Virus record (IMG/VR): IMGVR_UViG_2579778660_000005
Strand: one strand, 5' to 3'
Length of the DNA stretch: 16,519 bases
Source of the DNA: a virus
Taxonomy: Duplodnaviria > Heunggongvirae > Uroviricota > Caudoviricetes
Positions 1 through 14,026 of this stretch are shown here, piece after piece. A program made the translations under genes and the position numbers. Numbering within the stretch: the stretch's first letter is position 1; each line of letters opens with the position of its first letter. The notes below the pieces were generated by a model, which did not search any database, was not told the DNA's origin, and worked only from the letters and a program-made list of their open reading frames with translations.

Positions 1-1284
1 TTACAGACTTCTGGAAGGTTGCGCAGCTCTTACAACACGCGGTTGATCTTCCGCAGCGTCTTCCAGCGCACTTAAATCACGGTCTTTCACCTCTGGCATT
101 TTCAGCGCAGAGATTAAACCAATTACTGAATATGCCATGATCATAATGGCGATCGGATACCAGGATTCCGTCATGGTGCAGAAAATCCCCGCCAGGATAG
201 GACCAAAACCGGAAGCGATAAGACCACCAATTTCTTTAGAAATAGCCATCCGGGTAAAGCGGTTTTTACAGCCGAACATTTCTGCCATGGTAATGTTTTC
301 CAGAGCAAATAATCCCAGCACCGCACAGTTATGAATCACAATCAGTGCAACCATAATGGTGCTCGGGGCATAGCTTTTATCTACAATGATAGAAAGCATT
401 GGCCATGCCAGCACAATCGCGGAGGTATTCATAATAATATACGGGATCCGGCGACCAATTTTATCGGATAACCAACCAAGGAACGGAATGGTCATAAAGC
501 CGAGAATCGAACTAATCATCAATGCATCTGTTGGAATTGCTTTGTTAAACAATAACGTCTGCACTAAATAGCCTGCAAGGAAAGTCTGAATTAACCCGGA
601 GTTACCCGCCTGACCAAAACGCAGCCCTGTTGCCAGCCAGAAGGATTTGCTCTGGAACATGCTACCAGCAGGTGCAGGTTTTGCTGTGGGTTGGTTGCTG
701 TCATTAACCTTCTCAAAGACCGGGCTTTCTTTCAGATTCATACGTAACCAGATAGCAAAGACCATCACGACAACGCTCGCCAGGAACGGTATACGCCATC
801 CCCACGCCAGCAGTTCCTCTTTACTGAGAATGAAGAACATAAAGGCCCAGATTGCCGTTGCGCTCAAGGTTCCGCAGTTAGTTCCCATAGCTACAAATGA
901 GGAGATAATTCCGCGCTTACCTTTTGGTGCATATTCCGCCAGCATCGTACCGGCACCGGAAATTTCCGCACCTGCACCCAACCCCTGAATAATACGCAGC
1001 GTCACCAGCAAGATGGGGGCAAAAACACCAATCTGTGCATAGGTCGGTAACACACCAATTAAGGTGGTACAGATCCCCATCATGGTGATGGTAATAAAGA
1101 GCACTTTTTTACGCCCTATTCTGTCGCCCATTTTGCCGAAAATAAATGCTCCGACAATACGCGCCACATAACCTGCACCGTAGGTTCCCATTGCCAAAAT
1201 TAACGCCATTGCCGTTGATGATTCAGGAAAAAATATTTCATGAAACACTAACGCTGCGCCGAGCGAATATAACTGGAAATCCAT
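1..1284 (-). CDS. ydfJ: MFS-type metabolite:H+ symporter (ProP/KgtP-like); N-terminus appears shortened
   Basis: 427-aa ORF with many hydrophobic helices and the MFS loop motif G-x-x-G-D-R-x-G-R-K-K starting near residue 50; aligns from memory with ProP starting at about ProP residue 25; an in-frame TGA lies two codons upstream of the ATG. Confidence 0.85.
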   Translation of the reverse strand: MDFQLYSLGAALVFHEIFFPESSTAMALILAMGTYGAGYVARIVGAFIFGKMGDRIGRKKVLFITITMMGICTTLIGVLPTYAQIGVFAPILLVTLRIIQGLGAGAEISGAGTMLAEYAPKGKRGIISSFVAMGTNCGTLSATAIWAFMFFILSKEELLAWGWRIPFLASVVVMVFAIWLRMNLKESPVFEKVNDSNQPTAKPAPAGSMFQSKSFWLATGLRFGQAGNSGLIQTFLAGYLVQTLLFNKAIPTDALMISSILGFMTIPFLGWLSDKIGRRIPYIIMNTSAIVLAWPMLSIIVDKSYAPSTIMVALIVIHNCAVLGLFALENITMAEMFGCKNRFTRMAISKEIGGLIASGFGPILAGIFCTMTESWYPIAIMIMAYSVIGLISALKMPEVKDRDLSALEDAAEDQPRVVRAAQPSRSL

Positions 1285-2068
1285 AATTCACAGGTGTTTT
1301 TTCCCATCCTGTGGTTTCCTTGGCGTTTTCTAGGTTTTTTCAGATAGTTGCATTTTTTAAAAAGCATCCTAAGTTCGATCTCAGTGTCTATCTGGGGCCT
1401 ATTTCTGTCCCATATATGCCCCAAAAAGACTCCCCAACAGATAAGTAGTTTTTCATGGATTTACGCGTAAAATCAATAACGGCTGGAAATCATTCAATAC
1501 TCGCACTATCGAAAAATTTACCAGCCAACCGCAGCACGTTCTTGCATAAGGCGTGTCTGCGGTTTTTCAACTATTCAGATAAATCACTCCCATCACATTC
1601 ATTCCTCCGCATCAAAGGCATATAGGCTATATCACCTTGATATTTTTCTTCTTCAGATAAAAACTGTTATCTATGTATACTTTTAAACCCAATCCGTGTA
1701 GAGTCTCTGCATAAGATAGTTTGCAGTTGCCGCTTCAGCTTGCGCCATAAACCGCCTGATTTTTGCTGCCACCTGTTAGCATTCCTGTATACCTGAAACG
1801 ACAATGTTTATCTACGAACTTTAAGAACACCCAAGATAAAAATTGTCAACTATATCATATATAACACATTACTAATTCGAGGCTATATGAACAGCATACT
1901 GATAATCACTTCTCTCCTTATCATATTCAGCATTTTTAGTCATGCCCTAATAAAATTAGGGATTGGCATATCCAATAACCCAGACAAAACCGATGTATAA
2001 GCCAACATATCCTGAATCAGACATACAATATCGCAATGAAAATCAATAATATTTTAAGGAATATCTTC

Positions 2069-2302
2069 ATGAAATCAAAAGACACCCTAAAGTGGTTCCC
2101 TGCGCAGCTTCCTGAAGTAAGAATTATCCTAGGGGATGCTGTAGTGGAAGTAGCAAAACAGGGAAGACCTATCAATACCAGAACATTGCTTGATTACATT
2201 GAAGGAAACATAAAGAAAAAATCATGGCTGGATAACAAAGAATTATTACAAACAGCGATATCAGTTCTTAAAGACAACCAAAATTTAAATGGTAAAATGT
2301 AA
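2069..2302 (+). CDS. ydfK: YdfK/YnaE-family small protein (77 aa)
   Basis: ORF track gives 88 aa from 2036; internal ATG at 2069 is preceded by AAGGA at 2056..2060 and matches the remembered YdfK start MKSKDTLKWF. Confidence 0.7.
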   Translation: MKSKDTLKWFPAQLPEVRIILGDAVVEVAKQGRPINTRTLLDYIEGNIKKKSWLDNKELLQTAISVLKDNQNLNGKM

Positions 2303-2618
2303 TATAATAAACTTACTTTTTTATCATTTTTCCACTTTAACAACATTTTGCTCCACTTTTCCACGACCAAACAACTTGAAATCTGGTTAAAATAACACGC
2401 AACACTATTCTTCTTCCTTGAGTCCGCCCGGAACTCGAAAAACAAACCGAGTTAAAGCCATTTTTCACAAAATCGATTTTGGGTCTCACCAAAATTACGG
2501 GGTTGCATACGCATTCGTTTATTTTCGAACGTGTACATACAAATATGCACAAAAATAATCAAAATTATTTTCTGAGATGCATTATGATATGAACACCAAT
2601 TTCGTATAGAGTCTCACT

Positions 2619-3209
2619 ATGTCTCGAATTTTTGCTTACTGTCGGATATCAACGCTGGATCAGACCACCGAAAATCAACGCCGGGAAATCGAAAGTGCAG
2701 GTTTTAAAATCAAACCTCAGCAAATAATCGAAGAACACATTAGCGGCTCAGCAGCAACCAGTGAGCGTCCTGGTTTTAACCGGTTGCTTGCTCGCCTGAA
2801 ATGTGGTGATCAATTGATTGTGACAAAACTGGATCGCCTTGGTTGTAATGCAATGGATATCAGGAAAACAGTGGAACAACTGACCGAAACAGGTATCAGA
2901 GTGCATTGCTTAGCATTGGGGGGCATTGACCTGACCAGTCCAACAGGAAAAATGATGATGCAAGTAATTTCAGCAGTCGCTGAATTTGAACGAGACCTTT
3001 TACTTGAACGCACTCATTCCGGGATAGTAAGAGCCCGCGGCGCAGGGAAACGTTTTGGTCGACCACCTGTGTTAAATGAAGAACAGAAACAGGTGGTATT
3101 CGAACGAATTAAGTCAGGTGTAAGTATAAGTGCCATTGCCCGGGAATTCAAAACCTCGCGGCAAACCATTTTAAGAGCCAAAGCAAAACTTCAGACACCT
3201 GACATATAA
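2619..3209 (+). CDS. pinQ: Serine recombinase, Gin/Hin/Pin-family DNA invertase
   Basis: 196 aa; N-terminal catalytic motif YCRISTLDQ and C-terminal HTH region typical of Pin/Gin invertases. Confidence 0.93.
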
Positions 3210-3306
3210 AAAATAATCTCGGTGTGAGATGCTTTACGTCTTCCAAGCCCCCTTCCTTGCCGTAAATGGAAAGATACATCTAATTATAGAATTTATATGT
3301 TTTACC

Positions 3307-3882
3307 CTACGGCAGTGCTGGCCATTCAATATCCTGTGCAGTTGACGTATCAACACGGTTCAGCAATACCCGATACTTTTTCCATGCTTCCAGCAACGAG
3401 ATTTCTTCCTCCGTTGCAATTTCCAGATCTGCAGCATCCTGAAGCGGCGCAATATGCTCACTGGCTACCTGCATCAGGTTGTTTTTTGTTTCTTCCGCCT
3501 CCCGGATCCGGAACAGTTTTTCTGCTTCCGTATCCTTCACCCAGGCTGTGCCGTTCCACTTCTGAAACTCCCCTTCCGGCGATAACCAGGTAACATTTTC
3601 CGGTAACGGACCGAGTTCAGAAATAAATAACGCGTCCCCTGATGCCACGTCATAAACTGTTTTACCCCGATGGTCTTCAACAAGATGCCACGATGCCTCA
3701 TCACTGTTGAAAACAGCCACGAAGCCTGCCGGAATATCTGGCGGTGCAATATCGGTACTGTTTGCTGGCAGACCTGTATGAGGCGGAATATATGCGTCAC
3801 CTTCACCAATAAATTCATTAGTTCCGGCCAGCAGATTATAAATTTTTATGGTCTGTGGTTGTTCACTCATTCTGAATGCCAT
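3307..3882 (-). CDS. tfaQ: Tail fibre assembly protein (Tfa)
   Basis: 191 aa recalled as lambdoid Tfa; start ATG overlaps the stop of the upstream tail-fibre ORF (TAATG arrangement). Confidence 0.85.
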
Positions 3883-4796
3883 TATGCAAGCCTCACAATA
3901 TAGTTAAATGCGATGTTTTTGACGGTGTTTTCCGCGTTACCAGCAGCGTTAACGGTGATGGTGTGTCCATGTGAACCAATCGCAACGGAGTGCGTATGAG
4001 CACCAATACCGACAGTATGTGCGTGAGCACCTGCAGATGCAGCTGTGCCGCTGACACTATGAGTGTGCGCTCCTGCAGCACTTGTATTCACACTGGCCGC
4101 AGACACTACCTTATGTACTGACCCATTTTGTGACCACTGGCTGATTGCTGATGCGCCTGTGACACTATGAGTATGGTTTCCGGCACTTGCGGCTGTACCG
4201 CTCACACTGTGCGTATGCGCCCCGGTGTTATTCGTGGATTTAGTGCCGTAATCAAACGACGATGTGGTTTTCGTCCCCAAATCCGTACTGGATGCGCTGG
4301 CGCTGTGGGTGTGCGATTTAATGCCGTCCTGTTCCTGAGACAATACGGCCCGACCACTGGCAGGTTTGCCCTTAATCGTCCAGCCACGCATATCAGGGAT
4401 CACGCCTGACGGATAAGCGGCTGCAAGTTTCGGGTAAGCAGATTTGTCAAAAGTCTGCCCCTGCATCAGGGCATAACCAGACGGAACGGTATCTGATGGC
4501 CACGGGATTGGTGCACCGACTGGATAAAACTCTGCAGGAGGATGAGCCGAGGTGTAAAGCTGCGCCCACGGCGACCAGTTTGCGTCGGTCGTATCCCGTC
4601 GTGAACGAATAAATGCCGGAGCATGAGCACCGCTTGTACCACTCCAGCCGATGAGTAACTCACCTTCGCCAACGGCTGTCATCCCTTTCAGGTGAATGAT
4701 ATTTCCATACGCTGTTGGATATCCGTTGTTATACACCTCGTATAACTCAAGACCTGCTGCCCCCTGCGTATTGTCTGTCAGCGCGGCTAACCGCAC
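3882..4796 (-). CDS. stfQ: Side tail fibre protein, C-terminal receptor-binding fragment (GTG start at a deletion junction; N-terminal part missing)
   Basis: 304 aa rich in Gly/Ser/Thr with repeated [15 protein letters not shown] His-x-His motifs typical of tail-fibre tips; starts with GTG at 4796 directly after an in-frame TGA and overlapping the stop of the L fragment. Confidence 0.65.
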
Positions 4797-5338
4797 TCAT
4801 CACCGCGATAGGTCCAGGTGCAGGTGTTGGCCAGCATGATACGTCCCGGAAAAACAGCGCCGTCCGTTTCCGTCGGTGTGGACAACACAAAGGAGGCACT
4901 GACCGCACTCAGTTCGCTGCACTGCTCGATGCGCCAGCGGCTGATCACCTCCTGCTCCGGATCGGCGTCGCTGTTTCCGTTGACGAAGTTCACCGCATCC
5001 AGAAAACGGGCGTAAACCTTACGCCTGACCACCGTTCCGCCGACCAGACTCTGCAGGTCTTCCGCCATCCCGGTGACCATGCCGTGCAGGTTAGAAACCG
5101 TCAGTGTCGGACGGGCAGCACTGCCCTTGCCGTTCAGTTCAAATCCCGTCCCCTGAATGGGGTATGCCTGATACTGCCGCCCCTGCCAGGTAACCGGCTC
5201 ACCTTTTTCGTTCTGCTCATTACAGAAAAAATAACGTTCACCACCGACCTCTGTCAGATCGATTTCCCAGAGCACCACCTGGGCTGACTGAGTGAGGCGT
5301 GTCGTCTCATGATGTGTTTCCTGTGGAATATCCTGCAG
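4787..5338 (-). pseudogene. Tail tip protein L fragment (lambda gpL homolog lacking its ATG and about 50 C-terminal residues)
   Basis: Residues QDIPQETHH...VVLWEIDLTEVGGERYFFCNEQNEKGEPVTWQGRQYQ...[12 protein letters not shown] match remembered lambda L nearly residue for residue; CTG at 5336..5338 replaces the initiator; stop follows ECG. Confidence 0.8.
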
Positions 5339-5831
5339 CGCCCCTAAATTGCCGCGGGCCAGTTCACCTATCAGAACGCCTATCTCCTGGCGGGCTGCTG
5401 CACTTTTCAGACCCAGCGAATGCGTGGCTTTTCCTGCCTGCTCCATTTTGCGGATATACACTTCTGCAGCACTGCTTACCCCCAGCTGGGCTGCCTTAGC
5501 ACGAAGCAACTCAGAAGATGAAAGATTCAGGCGGGTTGACATCACTGGCCGGAATGAGTTGTGCCGTTTCCTGTTCGAACTTAAGACGCTCACGTTCAGA
5601 CTGATACCAGGCTTTGCGCTCATGCGCGTCCATTTCGCCTTCTGCAACCGGCGGTGGTAATGCCAGAAATGCCGACACAATATCAACCACCCGATAAAGC
5701 TTGAGGTTGCTTTCATGCCCCCCTGCAACGGGTAGATTTTGCAGCCTTGCCGCAGCAGTCTGGCGATGTACACCTGACAGTGCCGCCAGTTGACTGATAT
5801 TCAGCGTCAGATTTTTTAACTCTCGATCCAT
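5339..5831 (-). pseudogene. nohQ: Terminase small subunit, Nu1-like (NohA family), frameshifted near 5535 and continuing in frame into the L fragment
   Basis: 106-aa frame (5511..5831) resembles the lambda Nu1 N-terminus; a second frame open from about 5542 carries Nu1-like C-terminal similarity and runs without stop into L. Confidence 0.55.
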
Positions 5832-6002
5832 ACCCGCTCCAGAATGTTTTAAACATGCATCTTGCGAACAACTTTAGGCAAACGGTGTTAGTGATGAACA
5901 AAAAACAATCAAAATCGACACCATAAAAATAAAACCACTGTAATATCAATCTATTACAGTGGTGGTGATGACGAATGAAATTTCAAAAACTAGCCTTTTT
6001 CC

Positions 6003-6022
6003 GCGACGCTCCCGCCCCGTGG
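6003..6022 (-). other. cos-like site (cosN remnant)
   Basis: Minus-strand CACGGGGCGGGAGCGTCGCGGAAAAAGG resembles remembered lambda cosN ACGGGGCGGCGACCTCGCGGGTTTTCG; lies about 180 bp upstream of the Nu1-like start, as in lambda. Confidence 0.35.
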
Positions 6023-6383
6023 CAGGCCACCCCACCGGGAGGACCCGACAGCCTGACAACCGTGACGAGCATCTGAAACAGAGCTTTACATAATGGCATG
6101 GGGATAATTCAGAAGGACATCACAGCATGCCCACACAAATTAGTGTGAGTGTCCTGTTTCTTACTACGCGCAGGACTGACGAGCATGAGGGGAAAATACG
6201 AGAACCGAAATGCCTTATCTTCAGAAATGCAGCCAGCATCCGAACTGGACGATATTGTAAATTCACCTAAATACGAGGCATTGCTGTAGTTGAATTACAG
6301 TACTGTATTAGCCTGACAGTGACAGAATACGATATTGACTCTGTCACTTGTGAAATGGTCAGAATGGTTAGCAGTTATGGTGA

Positions 6384-6590
6384 TCAATCAACCACCAGGG
6401 AATAATCCTTCGTATTCTTATCGTGCTTCACTAACGCTGCCTCAATTGCCCTGAATGCTTCCAGAGATACTTGATGTTCTATACATGCAATTATAACATC
6501 CGGGTAACTCATCGAAATGGTGCTATTAAGCATAGTTTTTACACGAACCTGCTCCTGGGAGGGGGCCTCAGTACATTGATCTTTATGCAT
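6384..6590 (-). CDS. Hypothetical small protein (possibly YnfO-like); start uncertain
   Basis: 68-aa ORF divergent from ydfO across a 290-bp intergenic region; no recognised motif. Confidence 0.35.
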
Positions 6591-6775
6591 TTTATCGCTC
6601 CATGCGTTTGTTCTTCACTTGTCGCTAAAAATATAACTTCAAATCTTTGAGCGTGGAAGTGTGGAAGTCACTGCGCGTTGATCTTGCATACATCGGTCGT
6701 TTGTTTTCCCCCCTGGCATATCAGAAAAACCAGGTTTTATAGCGGAATCAATACTATGTATTTTCCACCTGACTT

Positions 6776-6805
6776 TTGACACAAATCATCAATAAAACAT
6801 ATAAA
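6776..6805 (+). promoter_or_regulatory. Candidate sigma70 promoter for ydfO (TTGACA, 18-nt spacer, TATAAA)
   Basis: -35 TTGACA at 6776..6781 and -10 TATAAA at 6800..6805, about 75 bp upstream of the ydfO start. Confidence 0.4.
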
Positions 6806-6878
6806 GGTCAGACCAGATTGAAACGATAAAAACGATCTTGCAAACTACGTGCCCTCATACCATATGGAAGGTTTATCT

Positions 6879-7289
6879 ATGGATCAGGTAGTCATTTTTA
6901 AACAAATATTTGATAAAGTTCGAAACGATTTAAACTATCAATGGTTTTATTCTGAGCTAAAACGTCACAATGTCTCACATTACATTTACTATTTAGCTAC
7001 AGATAATGTTCATATTGTATTAAAAAATGATAATACAGTGTTATTAAAGGGCCTAAAAAACATTGTGTCTGTCAAATTTTCAAAGGATAGGCATCTTATA
7101 GAAACGACCTCTAATAAGCTGAAATCCAGTGAGATCACATTTCAGGAATACAGAAGAAACCTTGCTAAAGCAGGAGTTTTTCGGTGGGTTACAAATATCC
7201 ACGAACAAAAAAGATATTACTATACCTTTGATAATTCATTACTCTTTACTGAAAACATACAGAGCACATCACAAATATTTCCACACTAA
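6879..7289 (+). CDS. ydfO: YdfO-like protein (DUF1398)
   Basis: ORF track starts at a GTG (6849); ATG at 6879 is preceded by GGAAGG at 6866..6871 and gives 136 aa starting MDQVVIFKQ, matching remembered YdfO. Confidence 0.75.
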
Positions 7290-7608
7290 ACCATAACGTC
7301 CGGTTTTTTCTACCCCAGCACCGGACTGGCTGACATAAAGAGCAACCCCACGTTAAGTTGACGCGTTAATAACCCGGTGTACATCGTTTTTGATTATTCC
7401 CCCACACTCGCGCAGAAGGAGTTCCCCGTCAGGCTACAGTCATAATTAATGCAGGAGCACAGCGACGATACAGCGCACAGAAACAAATCAGGCATCCATT
7501 AACTTCACACAAACGATGCATTGCATCGACAGGAGTAATGGCGTAAGTTGGATTCTTGGCGCTCTTTCGCCACCGGCGAATCTTCAGCGGATTATCCTTG
7601 GCCTGTTT

Positions 7609-8088
7609 TTATCTGAGGCATTGCTCACGAATGTATCGCTGTGCCCCCTCCAGTTGTTTTTGCATTATGATCAGTCTTTCTCTGAGGGAGAAATAATCCC
7701 GTTCAGCGGTGTCTGCCAGTCTGGGGGAGGTTGCATTATCCACGCCGGAGGCGATGGTGGCTTCACGCACAGACGGACAGATTGCTTTGATGTGCAACCG
7801 ACGACGACCAGCGGCAACATCATCACGCAGAGCATCATTTTCAGCTTTCGCATCAGCTAACTCCTTCAGGTATTTTGCATCGAGTGCAGCAACATCACGC
7901 TGGCGTATCTGCATGTCAGTAATGATTGCGGTCGCCTGGTTGAGTTTTTCCGACACATTATCGCGTTGCGCTTTGTAGGTAATGGCATTATCACGGTAAT
8001 GATTAACAGCCCATGACAGGCAGACGATGATGCAGATAACCAGAGCATAAATAATCGCGGCAACTCTGCTCACTGCTCTATCCCCCAA
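7609..8088 (-). CDS. rzpQ: Spanin inner-membrane subunit Rz (i-spanin)
   Basis: 159 aa; N-terminal TM helix [33 protein letters not shown] and coiled-coil region near-identical to remembered lambda Rz. Confidence 0.9.
7671..7853 (-). CDS. rzoQ: Spanin outer-membrane lipoprotein Rz1 (o-spanin), embedded in Rz in the +1 frame
   Basis: 60 aa with lipobox LVVVGC and proline-rich core [18 protein letters not shown], very close to remembered lambda Rz1. Confidence 0.85.
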
Positions 8089-8603
8089 CAGGCTAATGCG
8101 CTTTCCTGGTCACGACGAATAACCTGACCATAACAGTTATTTGAACGAATGCGGCAATCGCGCCCCCTGTCCTTAATCCACCAGCGAATCGCCTCGCAGG
8201 CACCTTTACGATCACCTGCATTCAGCCGTTTATAAAACGTCGACGGAAAACACTTACCGGGGCCAATGTTATAGGGACAAAATGACGCGATACCCGCTTT
8301 CTGGGGTTCGGTCAGCGGCACTTTAATATTGCGCTCCACCCATGCCAGCGCCTTATCGCGTTCAATGGCATTAACCTGAGCACATTTTTCCTTCGTCAGT
8401 TTCATGCCCGGAATAACAGATTTACCATCCACCATCGTGGCACCACGACAGATGGTCCATATGCCGGAACCATCGCGGTATGCCGTAGTGTGGTTACCCT
8501 CTTTTTCATCCAGAAACTGGTCAAGTATCTGTGGAGCTGATGCGCCTGCTCCAATCAGCGCCAGAGCTGCAGCTGACAGGCCGTATTTGATTTTTGCGTT
8601 CAT
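8070..8603 (-). CDS. rrrQ: SAR endolysin (phage-21 R-type lysozyme)
   Basis: 177 aa; weakly hydrophobic Gly/Ala-rich N-terminal signal-anchor-release helix [16 protein letters not shown], then E...D...T lysozyme motif region. Confidence 0.9.
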
Positions 8604-8658
8604 GGATATTTATCAGGATGCTACCAATGAAAGATACTGGAAAGCCAACCGCAAAAAG

Positions 8659-8973
8659 CTAACAACCCGTAATCGAGTTATCAGAACTGTTAATTTTTAT
8701 GGTATACCGCGCCTCTGAACAGGGGCGCGTTTCTGGCAACAGCTCGTCCCCTTCACATAACCCGGCAGCAACATCCAGGAAGACCTGTCTGATGCTCCTT
8801 CTGGCTGCTGCCTCATAAAACTCCAGCGCGGCACCTTCAACACGGACCAGCGAGATGTCCAGGTCAAAAATTTCACCGTCAAAGCGTTCTTTGTCCCGTA
8901 ACGCTAAAGTTACCGTAACTTTATTCTCAAAATTGCGGATCCCTTTCACAATCAGTTCATATTTTTGAGTCAT
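8659..8973 (-). CDS. ydfR: YdfR-like protein (DUF1327) inside the lysis cassette
   Basis: 104-aa ORF between holin and endolysin genes, the same position as ydfR in Qin-type prophages. Confidence 0.65.
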   Translation of the reverse strand: MTQKYELIVKGIRNFENKVTVTLALRDKERFDGEIFDLDISLVRVEGAALEFYEAAARRSIRQVFLDVAAGLCEGDELLPETRPCSEARYTIKINSSDNSITGC

Positions 8974-8977
8974 TGAA

Positions 8978-9193
8978 TTACTCTCCCCGTGCAGCCTTAC
9001 GCTTGTCTTCTTTAATCTTGAAATAAAGGTTTGTCAGGTACGTCAGCAGGCCAAATACCAGGCTACCCAGCACACCTATTGCTGCCCACTGTGAGGGCGT
9101 GACTTTATCGAGCAGCTGTAAAAACCAGTAGCCAGCACTGCCTGCGGAGGTGCCGTAGGCAATGCCTGTTGAAATTTTGTCCATGGATTTCAT
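8978..9193 (-). CDS. essQ: Pinholin, S21-like class II holin with dual-start motif (71 aa)
   Basis: Sequence [26 protein letters not shown]...[13 protein letters not shown] matches remembered S21; two in-frame ATGs at 9193 and 9184 (minus) preceded by GGAGGTGA; the 90-aa track ORF is an unsupported upstream extension. Confidence 0.88.
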
Positions 9194-9295
9194 AGCCTCA
9201 CCTCCGCACGGAACGGATGGCATAGTTATTATGTGTAGGCTTCCAGACACATCAATCAGAGCCTTAATTGATATATATGCTGGAGACGATGCAAT

Positions 9296-9319
9296 ATAAA
9301 AAGCTCGCCGTAGCGAGCT
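9296..9319 (-). terminator. Rho-independent terminator (minus strand) between lipoprotein gene and holin
   Basis: Minus-strand AGCTCGC-TACG-GCGAGCT stem-loop followed by TTTTT. Confidence 0.55.
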
Positions 9320-9444
9320 AATAAAATGTATTTCTCTGATATTATGTTTATTTGTATTAGCTCAGACTTGACATCACAGGTTTCGTATATAGAACATCAT
9401 CAAATCTGTCAGTTTGCTATGAATGAGATATAGTAATTGAAGAG

Positions 9445-9840
9445 CTAACCTCGCATGTCAAAGCCAGATTTCTGAAAATCTCTGTAGACTTCCGGATTGT
9501 TGAAGGCCGGAAATTTGGCTTTATGAGCTGCGGACTTTATCGCTTCGCAATAGGCTTTATCACCGTTACTGGTAGATATTTTTAACGCCGTGCCATCCTG
9601 AGAGAATTCCATATGCAACCTGCATTTTTTCCCTTTCCAGTTATGCGGCTCATCAAGTTTGGCATTAATTGCAGCTCTGATTCCCCGCGCTTGCGCCCCC
9701 CATTCATCCTGATCATCCCAGCGTCCTGAACTGCAACTACCTGTAGCAGTAGTTTTGTGGCAATCTGAAGGGTGTAAAGGTGTGCATCCCGCAACAAAAC
9801 CGACCCAAAAAGTCAACATAACGATTTTCTTTAATCCCAC
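9445..9840 (-). CDS. Lipoprotein with diverged TolA domain III-like C-terminal domain (paralog 1)
   Basis: 131 aa; GTG start preceded by GGAG; signal peptide with lipobox VAGC; C-terminal part aligns with paralog 2 and with remembered TolA domain III. Confidence 0.75.
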   Translation of the reverse strand: MGLKKIVMLTFWVGFVAGCTPLHPSDCHKTTATGSCSSGRWDDQDEWGAQARGIRAAINAKLDEPHNWKGKKCRLHMEFSQDGTALKISTSNGDKAYCEAIKSAAHKAKFPAFNNPEVYRDFQKSGFDMRG

Positions 9841-9990
9841 TTCTTGCTCCTCAATCCATTAAAATCTCAGCAATAGTAGTTGTTACGTCCGCCACTGGCT
9901 CAGAGCTGACTATCCGCTAAATTTAGCTCAGTGCCGTAGTTGTGTCAGAACAAACCTAAGCCGAAACCGTTTATTACAAAACAATAAATA

Positions 9991-10419
9991 TCAGGGTTTA
10001 AAATCCAGCACCCCATTTTGAAATACTTTATATACTTCCGGCGAAGGGGGGGCAGGTATATCAGCATTCTTTATCGCATTCATCGCTTCACGACATAAAT
10101 CGAGGTCTCCACTTTCTCTTTTAACCTCCAGTAGAAGGCCATTCGGGGCCATATGCATTCTCAGTGTACACTCTTTTCCTGAATACTTACTCGCATCCCC
10201 GAACTGTTTTTCGATGGCGCTCTTGATTTGATGGGCATACAGACGGATATCCTCACTAACATCAGAAGTACGTTCAGATGAACTCACATACTGTGTCTCT
10301 ATTGCTTTATCGGAGTAATATGATGTACGGTCATGATAATTTGTCGATACAGCATCAGTGCACCCGATAATAATCCCACTAATAATCAACGTAAGAATTG
10401 ATGCGCTACGAAAACCCAT
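9991..10419 (-). CDS. Lipoprotein with TolA domain III-like C-terminal domain (paralog 2)
   Basis: 142 aa; ATG preceded by GAGG; lipobox IIGC; C-terminal 86 aa (YAHQIKSAIEKQF...GKECTLRMHMAPNGLLLEVK...IPAPPSPEVYKVFQNGVLDFKP) about 60 percent identical by eye to the remembered E. coli TolA C-terminus. Confidence 0.8.
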   Translation of the reverse strand: MGFRSASILTLIISGIIIGCTDAVSTNYHDRTSYYSDKAIETQYVSSSERTSDVSEDIRLYAHQIKSAIEKQFGDASKYSGKECTLRMHMAPNGLLLEVKRESGDLDLCREAMNAIKNADIPAPPSPEVYKVFQNGVLDFKP

Positions 10420-10454: not shown

Positions 10455-10952
10455 TATACCGTTGTTTTGGACGCTCAAACAGCGAATCAGATCAAATAAA
10501 ACGCACATTTGTTAACATTTACACAAAGTCTGCGTGGGATATTCTGAAAGAATATCCATAATGTGGAGAGAATCTATTGAAGTGCATGGTGCCGGGTGCC
10601 TCCCGGTGAATTCAGTACCAGCACCTGAATCCGCGATTATCCCATATACCTACTCGCTGATTGCCCCTCCGCACAGGGGGATTCACCATGCCAGTTTCTT
10701 TTAACAAACTCCCCGCAAACCAGAGAACAGTCAACCGCCTGAATTGTGAAGTATTTAAAAATTTCTCCCGCTAACTGATACCCGGCTAACAGTCTGGCGT
10801 TTTCTTTTTCAGCAACGGGAAAGCAACAACCACCACACCCGCCACCAGCACACCGTCAGCCAGCACTGACATTATCCGGCTGCTGCAATGCCATTCACAA
10901 AAACAGTAAGCAATCACTTTTTACCGTAACAGGTGATAATCCAGATATGTAT

Positions 10953-11306
10953 CTACCCCAGATGAGTAATCCGAAGTTCATCCATACCACAGGTCCTGGC
11001 TATTCTGTTGTACTCCTGAACAAGAGCAAATAATTCTGAATTAGCAACCATGAACTCATCGCAAACCCTCTGTATAGCATCACTATTCAGAATAATAACG
11101 TCTCTTCCCGAAAGACGATCAGGAGCACAGAACAAAACTGTCAAACGGCTGAAGGCCTTTGCTCGTGCTGCATTGACTATATCAATACGCTGCCTAAGGA
11201 TGAAACACCCCGACGCCTCATCAATATTCACTCTACCCACACCATATGAATGATAAATATTTAATGCTGAAAAAACCATTAGACCGTATAACAAACACTC
11301 AATCAA
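10953..11306 (-). CDS. Hypothetical protein (117 aa, TTG start; possible cargo gene)
   Basis: Long ORF in an AT-rich stretch, same orientation as the late operon, directly downstream of the tRNAs; no recognised motif; start codon uncertain. Confidence 0.35.
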   Translation of the reverse strand: MIECLLYGLMVFSALNIYHSYGVGRVNIDEASGCFILRQRIDIVNAARAKAFSRLTVLFCAPDRLSGRDVIILNSDAIQRVCDEFMVANSELFALVQEYNRIARTCGMDELRITHLG

Positions 11307-11416
11307 TACTTAACAGAACTTTTATTTTTGACAAACATATAATATTTTCAACAATATCCTGAGCCAGGTATATTCCAGTATAAGGCTCTGCCGGAAGGAA
11401 TCTGGAAGAATGAATA

Positions 11417-11493
11417 TGGCGCGCTGTACTGGATTCGAACCAGTGACCGATTGCTTAGAAGGCAATTGCTCTGTCCGGCTGAGCTAACAACGC
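11417..11493 (-). tRNA. argO: tRNA-Arg (anticodon UCU)
   Basis: 77-nt cloverleaf folded by hand: acceptor GCGUUGU/ACAGCGC, D-stem GCUC/GAGC, anticodon stem AUUGC/GCAAU with loop CUUCUAA, T-arm ACUGG-UUCGAAU-CCAGU, 3' CCA. Confidence 0.9.
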
Positions 11494-11597
11494 TGAATAC
11501 CGATAATGGACCGCCATCGGGGACCCGCCCCCCCCCGCACCAACAACCCTGTTATCGTGTCGTCTGCTCTTCCTGATAAGCTCATGGCGGTTTGTGA

Positions 11598-11673
11598 TGG
11601 TGGCCCTTGCTGGATTTGAACCAGCGACCTGGCGATTATGAGTCGCTCGCTCTCACCACTGAGCTAAAGGACC
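11598..11673 (-). tRNA. ileZ: tRNA with CAU anticodon (Ile2-like or Met)
   Basis: 76-nt cloverleaf: acceptor GGUCCUU/AAGGGCC, D-stem GCUC/GAGC, anticodon loop CUCAUAA, T-arm GCUGG-UUCAAAU-CCAGC, 3' CCA; one mismatch at the top of the anticodon stem. Confidence 0.8.
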
Positions 11674-11712
11674 GGGAGCAGAATAATAACGGTCCGTAAT
11701 TAATTCCGCAAT

Positions 11713-11736
11713 AAAAAACCCGCTCGGTGGCGGGTT
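11713..11736 (-). terminator. Rho-independent terminator downstream of Q (tR'-like)
   Basis: Minus-strand AACCCGC-CACCGA-GCGGGTT stem-loop followed by a U-tract. Confidence 0.6.
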
Positions 11737-11783
11737 GTAGAAACTCTTCTAACGTCAGGCATAAAACGCCCATCTTTATGACG

Positions 11784-11811
11784 AATTTACCACAGATTCC
11801 GGAAAAATCAA
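11784..11811 (-). promoter_or_regulatory. Late promoter pR'-like (-35 TTGATT, 16-nt spacer, -10 TAAATT)
   Basis: Lies immediately after the Q stop codon; remembered lambda pR' is TTGACT/TAAATT in the same position relative to Q. Confidence 0.5.
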
Positions 11812-11816
11812 CCTTG

Positions 11817-12638
11817 TTACCTAGTTACCTTTTTTAACTGCCGCTCAGCCCATGCTTCTTCAATATCAAACCGGGTCACCAGCGCATCATAGAATTTCTT
11901 AACTGTTTTTTCCCATGACGCGCGTGTTATCTGGTTTGTCACCTCGCATATAGCATTAAATGCCTCCGTTGATGGTAGTCTTTCATAGCCCCGACCACCA
12001 CAACGCTGGCAGTCTCTGATAACAGGCATACCACGTTTTACCGACTCTTCACGGTGAATGGCGACACCACGCCCACGGCAATCCTTACAGGCGGTGGAAA
12101 CCTCACCCTTTCCGCCACACTCCGGACAGGCAACTTTTACCACCTCCCTGACTTTTTTCCATTCTTCCCAGTAAGACGGATACACACCTTTCGTACACTT
12201 TGCCCATACCGGCGGCTTACCATCCGGATACTGGACCTTGTTTGTAAAAACTACGCTTTCAATAAATTTTTCCCCATAGCAACAAGGGCACTGCTTTTTA
12301 CTCGCTGCGCTGCGGGCATAATCCTCAAAAGCGTACGAAGCCATAATGCGCATCACTAACGGTTTTATTTCTGCCGGAAGTTTTCTCAACGCCGCCACAC
12401 GATCGCACCGACTGAGTGCATAATCTGCCAGTAATTCTGTTGCCCGCGCCCTGTCATTCATACTGATGCCCATTTTCCCCAGGAACGCAGAAAATCCCAT
12501 CTCAGCCCGATTCTGTGTCATGCCCTGCGCGGCCATCACATCAGTGATACTCAGCGCATCTTTTGACGTTGAGGCCGATGCATCGGTCAGGCCAGGGGAT
12601 TTTGGGGAGTAGTATTTCGGTAAATCTTCCAGTTTCAT
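11817..12638 (-). CDS. quuQ: Late-gene antitermination protein Q (lambda Q family)
   Basis: 273 aa; shares with remembered lambda Q the blocks SPKSP...TDVMAA.GM, CxxC-GxG zinc motifs (CKDCRGRG, CQRCGGRGY) and TVK..YDALV. Confidence 0.9.
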   Translation of the reverse strand: MKLEDLPKYYSPKSPGLTDASASTSKDALSITDVMAAQGMTQNRAEMGFSAFLGKMGISMNDRARATELLADYALSRCDRVAALRKLPAEIKPLVMRIMASYAFEDYARSAASKKQCPCCYGEKFIESVVFTNKVQYPDGKPPVWAKCTKGVYPSYWEEWKKVREVVKVACPECGGKGEVSTACKDCRGRGVAIHREESVKRGMPVIRDCQRCGGRGYERLPSTEAFNAICEVTNQITRASWEKTVKKFYDALVTRFDIEEAWAERQLKKVTR

Positions 12639-13009
12639 TTTTTGACCTGCTCTTCATGCATTATGGGGTAAATCTTCACCCCCAGACGTCCACCAGATAC
12701 TGGCTGACCACGAACGATATTGATTTCATCAAACTGCTCATCGTCCATTAACACTCCCGCATGCGTCAGCGCATCCAGCGGTGCTTTCAGGATATTGTCC
12801 AGGTCGCGACGACGCTTATCCGGTGGCTCTGCAATCACCTTTATCGCCAGCCTTCCGGACAGGCTTAATTTCAGCCGCTGCTGGCGAACAATAAGCGCCA
12901 CAGCCCGGCGATAACGCTTTCCCTCCTCCGAGATAAAATATGTGCTGCCACGGCGTCGCCAGTAAGTGTTCACCGTCGGCGGGTAAGGTAAAACCAAATC
13001 TATGAGCAT
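12635..13009 (-). CDS. rusA: Holliday junction resolvase RusA
   Basis: 124 aa with RusA-like blocks LPYPPTVNTYWRR and DKRRRDLDN..K...DALT; ATGA overlap with the Q start. Confidence 0.85.
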   Translation of the reverse strand: MLIDLVLPYPPTVNTYWRRRGSTYFISEEGKRYRRAVALIVRQQRLKLSLSGRLAIKVIAEPPDKRRRDLDNILKAPLDALTHAGVLMDDEQFDEINIVRGQPVSGGRLGVKIYPIMHEEQVKK

Positions 13010-13021
13010 CAGTCACCTCTT

Positions 13022-14026
13022 TTACCCAAGCACGCCAGTTGCAAAGGCGTGATCAAGAAAACGAAAAATTAAATCAACCTGAGAACCATGCTTTTCTTCG
13101 AACGCCAGAGGATCCGCATGAAACTCGTTGTGATGCTCCCGACACAGCGGTAGCGTGAAAATATCGTGAGATTTTGTCCCCATTCCGCCCTGACCATGAC
13201 CAATCAGGTGATGGGGATCGTCGGCTGGCTTACCACAACACGCACACGGCTGTGTCTTCACCCAGCGTGTGTATTTCTCGTTAACCCAGCGGCGACGTTT
13301 AGGTCGTTTCATGAAAGATTCCGGAGACTCAGGATCAACGGCAATGCTGACCACCGTCTTTTCCTGTGGTGGGTTCTGTTGCTGGTGGGCGTGAGGCAGC
13401 GGCGCAAGATTTTTTGTGCGCTGTTTCAGTATGCTGGTGGCGGTCTGCTCTCCCGGTACGATGTCGCTTTCACGGTACATTGAGCGGATTTTTTCCGCAC
13501 GCAACCCCAGCGAACCACGTAATACCGCTTCCGGTAGCGCGTCCGCCACCTGATTGCGGACCGCCCACCAGGATAATTCAGCCAAAGATAATTCACGCTC
13601 CTGCGTACCGCTTATTGCGTGACCGATGACGTCAATCATCCATGCTGACAGGTTTTGATGAGCAAGTTGCTCGAGTGATTCGGATGTCTGGTCACGCAGC
13701 TGGTTGTCGCAGTGCCAGCACAACACCATTGCGCCGGTACCATAACGGTGAATGACGGTTTCGCTGTGATGATAATCGCCGTGTGGCCACTGGCAGGATT
13801 TAATATGGCGCAACAGCCAGTCAGACAATGCACCAGCACCACCAGCAGCACGAATTACCCGTGCGTTACTGAAAAACGGCAGCAATGTTTTGTCTTCCAC
13901 CAGCGGCTGGCGAACGGCAGGAACGACCCCGGACGGCAGATTACGCATGCTTTTCGGTTCCGGCTCCACCAGTACCCGGGTATTGTGGAATACCGGCATG
14001 GATTCACGGCCCGGCTTAACGACCAC
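13022..14026 (-). CDS. ydfU: DUF968 protein with C-terminal HNH-like Cys/His motif (YdfU-like); start uncertain
   Basis: 334 aa; C-terminal CACCGKPADDPHHLIGHGQGGMGTKSHD...CREHHNEFH; track start is GTG, an ATG lies at 13999. Confidence 0.7.
   Translation of the reverse strand: MVVKPGRESMPVFHNTRVLVEPEPKSMRNLPSGVVPAVRQPLVEDKTLLPFFSNARVIRAAGGAGALSDWLLRHIKSCQWPHGDYHHSETVIHRYGTGAMVLCWHCDNQLRDQTSESLEQLAHQNLSAWMIDVIGHAISGTQERELSLAELSWWAVRNQVADALPEAVLRGSLGLRAEKIRSMYRESDIVPGEQTATSILKQRTKNLAPLPHAHQQQNPPQEKTVVSIAVDPESPESFMKRPKRRRWVNEKYTRWVKTQPCACCGKPADDPHHLIGHGQGGMGTKSHDIFTLPLCREHHNEFHADPLAFEEKHGSQVDLIFRFLDHAFATGVLG

Follow-up and report, generated by a model that had tools for sequence, protein, structure and literature searches.

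A three-deletion scar in a Qin-site lambdoid prophage and a recurrent deletion endpoint in its tail fibre gene

Introduction

Which late genes survive in a lambdoid prophage beside ydfJ, and by what route did their remnants come to lie next to each other? The window, a 16,519-nt stretch of caudoviricete DNA (IMG/VR record IMGVR_UViG_2579778660_000005), carries on its minus strand, between positions 3882 and 5831, a string of late-gene pieces that a sequence-only reading had described as a deletion scar running from a small terminase through tail protein L into a tail fibre. It is a scar in a Qin-like prophage, but one with three junctions and four fragments, the tape-measure piece having been missed. 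The alignment proposed in that reading placed the endpoints at junctions J1, J2 and J3 when it was run against phage mEp460, K-12 Qin and native loci. The region is very probably what remains of the late genes of a lambdoid prophage, mEp460/cdtI-like and situated at the Qin site. As a scar it shows the routine decay of a cryptic prophage; its fibre-side endpoint recurs in many other loci.

Results

Base-level alignment to native genes resolves the region into four collinear fragments rather than three, in the order small terminase, tape measure, L and Stf, and junction maps against the native genes show a 2-nt overlap at each point where two parent genes meet. Three ORFs cover the scar (5511-5831, 4787-5773 and 3882-4796, all on the minus strand), and the tape-measure and L fragments are the only pair joined in frame. 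This anatomy of three deletions and four leftover fragments is seen directly in the alignments. Three separate illegitimate deletions in one prophage best account for it, with 2 nt common to both sides of every join. J1 took out about 9.8 kb between small terminase codon 98 and tape-measure residue 199, J2 about 2.6 kb between tape-measure residue 265 and the L start codon, and J3, which used the hotspot described below (H), roughly 8 kb.

The small terminase fragment (5539..5831, minus strand), placed by Pfam, PHROGs and alignment to mEp460, holds codons 1-98 of a gene of about 164-172 codons. It matches Pfam DUF1441 (E 4e-23, profile positions 1-95 of 147) and phrog_141 'terminase small subunit' (E 6e-39), shares 99.4% identity with mEp460 nt 1-319 and is of a Gifsy-2-like type according to the mEp460 annotation; its native continuation is present in locus L001. 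The gene had been called Nu1-like, a label that does not hold: it is of the DUF1441/phrog_141 type, and a Pfam scan at E<=0.01 returned DUF1441 as sole match and no Nu1 family. At J1 (5537..5538, minus strand) the terminase and tape-measure genes have CA in common, their native flanks being GTGATGTCA|GACGGG on the terminase side (L001) and GGCA|ACCCGCCTG on the tape-measure side (19/19 other loci), and the loss compared with mEp460 amounts to about 9.76 kb (nt 320-10080). Among the loci compared, J1 was found in the window and L058 only. The following 199 nt (5338..5536, minus strand) are an internal tape-measure fragment, residues 199-264 of 1021 on the full-length ORF of L121, with PHROGs matches to phrog_24 and phrog_20739 'tail length tape measure'.

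What had been taken for a frameshift near 5535 is thus J1, the deletion junction to this tape-measure fragment. The terminase ORF (5831-5511) lies in a frame different from that of the tape-measure fragment and ends at its own stop, TGA 5513-5511, 8 out-of-frame tape-measure codons past J1, so that it does not continue into L as claimed. A single frameshifted small-terminase gene reading into L, followed by a single L–Stf deletion, would be in keeping with the long ORF 4787-5773, which shares bases with the terminase ORF and stays open into L. However, 5536-5338 is tape-measure DNA with 98.5% identity to mEp460 nt 10079-10281, all 19 other loci carry a different native upstream sequence, and the terminase frame stops before L; judged by these alignments the frameshift model counts as already refuted and has next to no chance of being right.

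At J2 (5336..5337, minus strand; placed by native flanks and mEp460) the tape-measure gene and L have TG in common, and because this TG is shared, the ATG start of L now reads CTG (5338-5336). The CTG at 5336..5338 had been named as the initiator of an L homolog, and it does stand for the ATG of L. In other L loci (n=124) the start codon is ATG, or GTG in 2, before CAGGATATT, and the tape-measure gene natively continues past the J2 point as GCGCTG|AGGGG (L002). A TGCAGG microhomology at J2 was rejected, as TG alone is common to both sides. About 2.61 kb is lost here, comprising the remaining tape measure and gene M. The minor tail protein L fragment (4790..5335, minus strand) keeps codons 2-183 of 232 in frame with the tape measure; it matches Pfam Phage_tail_L (PF05100; E 3e-75, profile positions 1-156 of 206) and shares 98.4% identity with mEp460 nt 12892-13441, and at the protein level the match stops at ...RGDECG. 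L ends at TAG 4789-4787 after residue 183. The stop at 4787 and a shortfall of about 50 residues had both been recognized; with 183/232 kept, 49 C-terminal residues are gone (184-232, YHGP...KCSKCLSGCKF...), and the full-length domain with its cysteine-rich C-terminal end is not present. With 98 of about 164-172 codons, the terminase fragment is no complete independent gene despite its own stop, and L is not full length. The gene call for the identical locus L324 predicts a tape-measure–L fusion of 251 residues, from GTG 5542 to TAG 4787. Neither junction is a hotspot in the loci compared: on the tape-measure side 19/19 other loci are native and on the L side all are, and J1 and J2 look like one-off events.

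J3 (4788..4789, minus strand) joins L to Stf through a TA that both native flanks contain (GGT TA TCAC in L, GGG TA GCC in Stf); it makes the TAG stop of the L fragment and removes roughly 8 kb, beginning at L codon 184 and ending at Stf codon 709. The join also creates a near-perfect palindrome, GCGGTTAGCCGC (4783..4794, minus strand), which a whole-window motif scan returned as the window's best match to the hotspot motif GCGGW-TA-WCCGC, with 1 mismatch. The fibre fragment beyond it (3882..4787, minus strand) starts from codon 710 of the 1026-codon Stf of L015 and comprises the last ~300 codons, with Pfam Collar and Phage_fiber domains, a match to phrog_295 (E 3e-142), 98.4% identity to L001 and 96-97% to K-12 stfQ. 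An ORF with tail-fibre domains had rightly been placed here with a GTG start at 4796; Stf-derived DNA begins only at 4787/4789, and the GTG consists of L-gene bases in another frame, a fortuitous start from which the Stf product would have 304 residues. The N-terminal tail-attachment part and the shaft of Stf are absent, while the tip domains (Collar, fibre repeats) are intact.

Intact genes follow the fibre tip: tfaQ (3307..3882, minus strand; tail fibre assembly, 191 residues, Pfam Caudo_TAP E 4e-43, at the K-12 tfaQ position) and pinQ (2619..3209, plus strand; serine recombinase, 196 residues, Pfam Resolvase and HTH_7). No pix-like site lies in the window, and there is no pix site near pinQ. 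Fibre tip, Tfa and Pin are the only intact reading frames left, and their retention had been described correctly, as had the absence of large terminase, portal, head and most tail genes, which the gene list of L324 bears out. None of the fragments upstream of Stf is expected from its sequence to function. The core idea of the deletion scar, a prophage that should be unable to make virions, is upheld.

The terminase, tape-measure and L fragments share 98.4-99.4% identity with intact phage mEp460 and keep its order and strand. Like the scar, the mEp460/cdtI late region is collinear across these three fragments; in contrast, mEp460 has all head and tail genes and another Stf C-terminus without a hotspot-like sequence. 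The Stf part is not mEp460-like, so the ancestor was a mosaic relative or the tip was swapped. On the other side, the Qin right arm ynfT–ydfK–pinQ–tfaQ–stfQ next to ydfJ is present, and across window 1-4050, which spans ydfJ to stf, the gene order follows that of MG1655 1631002-1635053 at 98.9% identity. The K-12 Qin prophage (ydfK–pinQ–tfaQ–stfQ–nohA) agrees with the window in its ydfJ-side insertion site, in its right arm (96-99% identity) and in a Stf fragment that begins at the identical base. It differs in that Stf is joined to terminase A codon 3, behind a complete Nu1-type nohA, instead of to L codon 183, in lacking the DUF1441-type terminase and tape-measure fragments that the window adds, and in a lysis/late region of only 85-93% identity. 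Identity with K-12 Qin was rejected, since the structures diverge beyond window 4803; no K-12 homology was found between ~4803 and 6804. The recurrent fibre-side endpoint common with K-12 stfQ was not visible to the sequence-only reading. A junction shared with strain 26561 (L002), hinted at by BLAST, was likewise rejected because L002 has its own, different terminase–tape-measure junction.

All three junctions occur together in 6 independent contigs, also in L058, and J1, J2 and J3 were met in 0 of 5,426 complete E. coli genomes; the scar allele is rare. A carrier strain is on record as ENA ERZ28631097 or run ERR10901370. Intermediates with one or two of the three junctions were not found, so the order of the deletions and a single ancestor are inferred. 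The fragments might instead have been brought together by recombination among several prophage remnants in one cell. E. coli carries many partly homologous lambdoid remnants (median 4 places per genome, maximum 18), the Stf tip is not of mEp460 type and K-12 Qin holds a Nu1-type terminase at the same site, all of which would suit such an origin. Against this, the three fragments are arranged and oriented as in one phage type, which they match at 98-99% identity, and intramolecular deletion is the simpler route; the junction overlaps of just 2 nt also mean that homologous exchange did not make J1-J3. We regard multi-remnant recombination as improbable and successive deletions as the better account.

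H is one TA in this Stf type, GGTCGGG-TA-[A/G]CCGCGCTGAC, at Stf codon 709. At least 17 independent deletions, with different upstream partners, have their right end here, the nohA/A–stfQ junction of K-12 Qin among them. The context of H is native in 147 loci, and in 36 loci the same base is joined to other genes at 16 partner positions; a 17th partner came from a further survey. Partners are terminase A (two positions), the Nu1 end, a portal-like gene, protease, capsid (three positions), tape measure, tail protein I, the lom end, L, a Rac region and others, several of these names having been read from translations rather than from annotation. One reciprocal event keeps the left flank of H and joins it to tfa. 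Breaks counted from an anchor 192 nt downstream fall at H in about 35 loci, with few elsewhere besides a second site 65 nt further downstream, which has the same motif and 4 junction types. The sequences to which partners are joined are ACCGCGCTGACAGAC / GCCGCGCTGACAGAC at H and GGATATCCAACAGCG at the second site. Among complete genomes, H is native in 688 and the nohA/A–H junction is present in 365; a scan of species-representative genomes gave 3 matches only. PhiR29_1 is a candidate for an active phage with H. Deleted distances reach about 20 kb. Our literature searches found no described Stf deletion hotspot.

Genes joined at H fall about evenly into all three frames (6, 3 and 5 of 14), so no fusion product has been selected, and the idea that selection favoured a fused protein or a stop in frame was rejected on these counts. 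The same spread bears on whether selection maintains two products of the scar as domesticated, functional genes, namely the tape-measure–L fusion with its in-frame join and the Stf fragment that starts at GTG. Their ORFs are open, the stop of the fusion shares bases with the GTG of the Stf ORF, so that translational coupling would be possible, and Stf-derived proteins encoded by cryptic prophages are able to block adsorption of T2 (PMC12529663). Set against these points are the frames at H, an L without its C-terminal 49 residues and an allele known from 6 contigs and no complete genome; domestication is a very remote prospect compared with plain decay.

The partners are joined to H with little variation. 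Exactly TA is shared with H in 16/17 left partners, and likewise in the reciprocal event; the exception, L331, has A alone in common. Longer identities are 8 nt in the L025 event (TAACCGCG) and 7 nt in one event at the second site. The flanks of H are palindromic (CGG-N-TA-N-CCG), and the partner consensus CGGT-TA-TCCG stands against CGGG-TA-ACCG in H; the L-gene pseudo-site reads GATGAGTGCGGTTATCACGG, and the recurrent terminase-A site carries the same CGG-N-TA-N-CCG core. Measured against a background of 811 TA sites in the mEp460 late region, the native sites of the partners are much closer to H in both flanks (left p=8e-4, right p=3e-5, combined p=7e-6), and the left flanks also resemble the inverted right flank of H (p=4e-5). 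An exchange point inside the shared CGG or CCG blocks was never seen, no junction carries G from the hotspot at -1 or T from the partner at +1, and none of the 18 events is an inversion. Pin lies downstream in 7/10 junction types and also in 34/66 native loci, without clear association.

Discussion

The sharing of TA, together with native sites that resemble the palindromic flanks, suggests an enzyme-mediated exchange confined to two bases. H and pseudo-sites with its palindromic flanks may be broken and rejoined by a protein at the two central bases, either in a conservative exchange of the serine-recombinase type or through cuts that leave 2-nt sticky ends and are then ligated. We see the chances that H reflects such protein-mediated breakage and rejoining, by a putative enzyme, as even at best. 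Dyad-symmetric half-sites, as a crossover site of a serine recombinase would need, can be recognised in the partners as well as in H. If a recombinase acted on palindromic sites with a TA core, however, inversions would be expected as well as deletions, and their absence counts against such a mechanism.

A fragile spot at which illegitimate recombination through microhomology (slippage, single-strand annealing or end joining) proceeds without a sequence-specific enzyme would explain why only deletions and zero inversions occur in 18 events, and why all junctions have short overlaps, up to the 8 nt and 7 nt cases. A polymerase that stalls just after the TA of H and then switches template would further explain the fixed endpoint and the right-flank similarity. 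However, the left-flank similarity of the partners (both to the left flank of H and to its inverted right flank) plays no pairing role in a template switch, and the distances of up to about 20 kb also speak against this model. If strands annealed across the 10-bp imperfect repeat, products with G at -1 or T at +1 would arise; such products were never found, and this variant was rejected. We consider microhomology without a dedicated enzyme rather unlikely as the full explanation. A type II topoisomerase with its 4-bp stagger was rejected by reasoning on the junction data, since the predicted central GTAA or TTAT was never seen.

Taken further, and proposed here only tentatively, the TA at Stf codon 709, its sister site 65 nt downstream and the recurrent terminase-A site could be cryptic sites of a putative conservative, sequence-directed strand-exchange enzyme that repeatedly excises lambdoid head and tail genes and leaves fibre tip, Tfa and often Pin; such a defined course of enzymatic prophage domestication would have left its mark on K-12 Qin and on hundreds of E. 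coli genomes. If an enzyme is responsible, prophage decay in E. coli would be partly programmed instead of random, the frequent survival of fibre-tip/Tfa/Pin modules would be explained, and hotspot plus pseudo-site would offer a simple substrate for finding the recombinase or nuclease. The scar is one more decay route of a lambdoid prophage that keeps fibre tip, chaperone and invertase, and the hotspot context matters more. Recent work has shown that fibre modules of this surviving kind block phage adsorption following inversion by Pin (PMC12529663).

Pin acting at a pix-like site was rejected as the hotspot enzyme, as there is no pix-like sequence at H or across stf–tfa–pin, and it is further disfavoured by the lack of enrichment of pin downstream of junction loci. 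The pix sequence is TTCTCCCAAACC-AA-GGTTT/CGTTT compared with GGTCGGG-TA-ACCGCGC at the hotspot; searches for a Din-family invertase site (pix/gix/hix/cix), 26 bp long with ...AAACC-NN-GGTTT... halves and expected as an inverted pair, gave no match to the pix 16-mer with <=3 mismatches and no high-scoring 26-mer near stf, tfa and pin. An invertible segment or an element end at H would need a second copy of H, and was rejected because none, direct or inverted, exists in any locus. Inversion of the e14 P-segment by PinE/PinQ/PinR at pix resembles our case in that a Pin-family serine recombinase lies beside stf/tfa and recombination falls within fibre coding sequence (PMC12529663); in contrast, the events at H are deletions, lack a second inverted copy and use a different site sequence. 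Rearrangement of fibre genes by invertases has also been mentioned elsewhere (PMC3945230).

IS-mediated deletion was rejected, no IS being present at any junction, and so was the natural hot spot of IS30 (LHS), which lies elsewhere in lambda, at 33244-33498 outside stf (PMC9333248). No att-core similarity was found at the ydfJ and prfC prophage ends, and the 2 bases shared at H are too few for the 6-8 bp overlap of a tyrosine recombinase. In Int-promoted deletions of the lambda b2 type and in Cin/Gin recombination at quasi-sites, one end stays fixed and the other falls at various sites that weakly resemble it. By analogy, H may behave like a site used with secondary sites, with one fixed end and a crossover within a few shared bases, but it is neither an att core nor of the pix/cix type. 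By eye, H shows weak resemblances to a XerC arm and to Rci sfx sites.

Three deletion junctions in a decayed Qin-site prophage

The region at 3882–5831 of the window (minus strand) was read as three ORFs. The first (5831–5511, minus strand, 106 aa) matches DUF1441 (E 4e-23, profile positions 1–95 of 147) and, in PHROGs, phrog_141, terminase small subunit (E 6e-39); the sequence-only reading had called it Nu1-like, a family to which neither the domain nor the PHROGs search assigned it. The second ORF (5773–4787, minus strand, 328 aa) matches Phage_tail_L (E 3e-75, profile positions 1–156 of 206). The third (4796–3882, minus strand, 304 aa) bears a tail Collar domain and fibre repeats and belongs with the tail-fibre C-termini of phrog_295 (E 3e-142). 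Beyond it tfaQ (3307–3882) and pinQ (2619–3209) are intact; the coding sequence of tfaQ contains a match to Rfam family IS009 (3341–3539, minus strand, 221 bits, exceeding the gathering score).

Junctions were mapped by base-level comparison of the window with loci where each gene is intact. At J1 the native flanks are GTGATGTCA|GACGGG in the terminase gene and GGCA|ACCCGCCTG in the tape-measure gene; the window reads GTGATGTCAACCCGCCTG, so that CA (5538–5537) is common to both parents. The next 199 nt (5536–5338), earlier taken for a frameshifted continuation of the terminase gene near 5535, encode residues 199–264 of the 1021-residue tape-measure protein (phrog_24, phrog_20739). At J2 the native flanks GCGCTG|AGGGG (tape measure) and CTGATG|CAGGAT (tail protein L) compared with GCGCTGCAGGAT in the window show that TG (5337–5336) is common to both and that the ATG of L has become the CTG noted before. 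J3 connects L (GCGGTTA|TCACGG) to the side tail fibre gene Stf (GGTCGGGTA|[A/G]CCGCGCTG); the window sequence GCGGTTAGCCGCGCTG has TA (4789–4788) in common with both, and the join creates the TAG stop that ends L early, with residues 2–183 of 232 kept. The terminase frame stops at TGA 5513–5511, eight codons past J1, out of frame with the tape-measure fragment, whereas the tape-measure and L fragments share one frame, for which gene callers predict a 251-residue fusion starting at GTG 5542. The proposed in-frame join into L thus holds for the tape-measure fragment and not for the terminase, and the earlier observation and its interpretation both stand in part.

The intact, plaque-forming phage mEp460 carries the terminase small subunit, tape measure and L in the window's order and strand, with identities of 99.4% (nt 1–319), 98.5% (nt 10079–10281) and 98.4% (nt 12892–13441) to the respective fragments. 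Relative to mEp460, J1 removed ∼9.76 kb (large terminase, portal, protease, head and tail-tube genes and tape-measure codons 1–198) and J2 ∼2.61 kb (the remaining tape measure and gene M). The loss at J3 (the 3′ end of L, genes K, I, J and lom, and Stf codons 1–709) is only estimated, at roughly 8 kb from mEp460 gene order and the 1026-codon Stf of locus L015, since mEp460 has a different type of Stf tip. Close to the beginning of the terminase gene, an A-run (5810–5815) is one A longer in the window than in mEp460 (nt 1–60), which puts the annotated mEp460 start (MFKTFW...) out of frame; the ORF begins at ATG 5831, as in RefSeq WP_000373425.1. Immediately upstream of the terminase fragment, a hairpin with a 12-bp stem followed by a T-run (5934–5963, minus strand) resembles a terminator; the cos-proximal end of the lysis operon may lie here.

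The window opens with ydfJ (1–1284, minus strand), and over positions 1–4050 it shares 98.9% identity with E. coli K-12 MG1655, in which the corresponding stretch forms the left end of cryptic prophage Qin (ynfT, ydfK, pinQ, tfaQ, stfQ). Past about 4803 the two sequences part ways, and none of 5,426 complete E. coli genomes reached 80% coverage of 3882–5831; the window therefore carries a different allele of the Qin-site prophage, a new allele of a well-known kind, the decayed lambdoid prophage. Its remainder holds a repressor/Cro pair, DUF968, RusA, Q, tRNAs, two ORFs with TolA domains, holin, lysozyme and Rz, with no head or tail genes, and the claim that the prophage cannot make virions was correct. 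The ydfK–pin–tfa–stf tip is kept in many other E. coli prophage remnants with differing internal deletions (loci L005, L001, L002 and L006); in L005, from E. coli EC596, a capsid fragment lies directly against a full-length L gene (10986–12528).

J1 and J2 appear to be one-off events: the sequence upstream of J1 is native in 19 of 19 other loci containing the adjacent tape-measure sequence, and that upstream of J2 in all other loci containing the L start. The 106-residue terminase fragment ends in eight residues from tape-measure DNA and is therefore specific to J1. It is encoded on six contigs, including two fully read loci that match the window in all three junctions and in their chromosomal neighbours; the IMG/VR locus L058 is identical to the window across the region. 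Each of the three junctions is absent from the 5,426 complete genomes, and no intermediate with fewer than three was found.

A recurrent deletion endpoint in Stf

The scar as such is ordinary; the part deserving pursuit is the recurrent TA endpoint on the Stf side of J3 (codon 709/710, the hotspot) together with its palindromic partner motif. The nearest described relative is the nohA–stfQ join of K-12, in which stfQ starts at the same Stf base as the window fragment and the partner is codon 3 of terminase A. We scanned IMG/VR, metagenome and genome collections with the 24 bases right of the J3 join and found them in native Stf context in 147 loci and joined to other sequence in 36, at 16 different partner positions. 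These partners, named partly from record annotation and partly from our reading of translations, are terminase A (two), the Nu1 end, a portal-like gene, protease, the capsid gene (three), tape measure, tail protein I, the lom end, a terminator after the tail-tube region, L, a Rac-prophage region and others. All 16 have TA directly before [A/G]CCGCGCTG. Native genes likewise carry either A or G at this base, which means that the events had different backgrounds. Terminase A supplies a further, 17th partner (...CCCTTTC|A) with only the A in common. One locus retains the left flank of the hotspot, joined at TA to mid-tfa. The heavily deleted prophage L244 (IMGVR_UViG_2541047953_000001, 6462–9431) carries a fusion of a Nu1-type terminase gene with part of the tail-tip protein J gene, and a Stf gene that meets the C-terminal portion of tfa at the hotspot TA.

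With an anchor 192 nt downstream, by which the hotspot is not preselected, 147 loci were uninterrupted and about 35 broke at the hotspot; breaks elsewhere were few, several of them ordinary mosaic boundaries. Upstream of the hotspot about a dozen other single breakpoints are scattered across 2.1 kb of Stf. A second junction site, with the same CGG-N-TA-N-CC core, lies 65 nt downstream (AACGGA-TA-TCCAAC, AACGGATATCCAAC, window about 4723–4722); four different deletion joins (L349, L344, L341 and L332) are no more than 6 nt from it. The same motif occurs at a site in the terminase large subunit gene of related loci (ACGGA-TA-CCGCGAAAG; GGTACGGATACCGCGAAAG, the left flank of L332), which in six loci adjoins one of three different downstream sequences and thus behaves as a recurrent left partner. 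Complete genomes contain the native hotspot context in 688 cases and the nohA/A-to-hotspot join in 365. Our literature search, of incomplete coverage, found no paper describing the hotspot; an earlier description may exist.

Partner motif and candidate mechanisms

The undeleted sequence of 14 partner sites was retrieved from other loci. Their consensus CGGT-TA-TCCG(G) and the hotspot CGGG-TA-ACCG are both near-palindromes centred on TA, and no other place in the window fits the palindromic motif as well as the join GCGGTTAGCCGC. Identity to the hotspot flanks at −4..−2 and +2..+4 averaged 3.47 of 6 at partner sites versus 1.77 at the 811 TA sites of the mEp460 late region (p = 7e-6), and each flank was significant singly (left p = 8e-4, right p = 3e-5); with the inverted right flank of the hotspot, the partners' left flank agrees even better (p = 4e-5). 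If replication stalled right after TA and then switched template, the fixed endpoint, the occurrence of deletions alone and the right-flank similarity would be accounted for, but not the left-flank similarity; we give a non-enzymatic microhomology route a somewhat lower probability than the enzyme-mediated exchange described below, and neither reaches even odds. Among the junctions compared, the exchange point never lies within the shared CGG or CCG blocks, and no product has the hotspot G at −1 behind foreign sequence or the partner T at +1. The products predicted for a 4-base stagger (gyrase-type exchange) and for annealing over the 10-bp imperfect repeat are accordingly absent.

The fixed endpoint, the common TA, the two-sided flank similarity and the restriction of exchange to two bases are direct observations, from which we infer a mechanism. 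A protein recognizing both sides and cutting with a 2-base stagger would yield these features, and enzyme-mediated exchange of 2 bp is, tentatively, a plausible reading of the sequences. Candidates would be a serine recombinase acting at pseudo-sites, or a nuclease that produces 2-nt ends for later ligation. Against a recombinase, none of 18 events was an inversion, though the palindromic core should permit inversions. Fixed-endpoint deletions are made by site-specific recombinases at secondary sites, as in the b2-type deletions promoted by lambda Int and at Cin quasi-sites; the hotspot resembles these in behaviour but differs from both systems in site sequence. The obvious suspect, Pin, acts at pix (TTCTCCCAAACC-AA-GGTTT/CGTTT in e14; PMC12529663), a site very unlike the hotspot. 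A search of the window for pix-like sequence was negative, and no locus showed a second hotspot copy; pin lies downstream of the join in 7 of 10 junction types, yet 34 of 66 native loci have it there as well.

Accessory genes outside the scar

Immediately downstream of the Q gene (11817–12638) lie tRNA-Arg(TCT) (11417–11493) and tRNA-Met(CAT) (11598–11673), both on the minus strand. Between the Q antiterminator/tRNAs and the holin, the slot that in lambdoid phages holds stx or other accessory genes, two tandem ORFs encode TolA C-terminal domains (9445–9840, 131 aa, E 1e-14; 9991–10419, 142 aa, E 2e-23; minus strand); one possible role is as decoys against Tol-dependent phages or colicins. Upstream of them Rfam places the sRNA STnc100 (10530–10720, minus strand, 114 bits, exceeding the gathering score).
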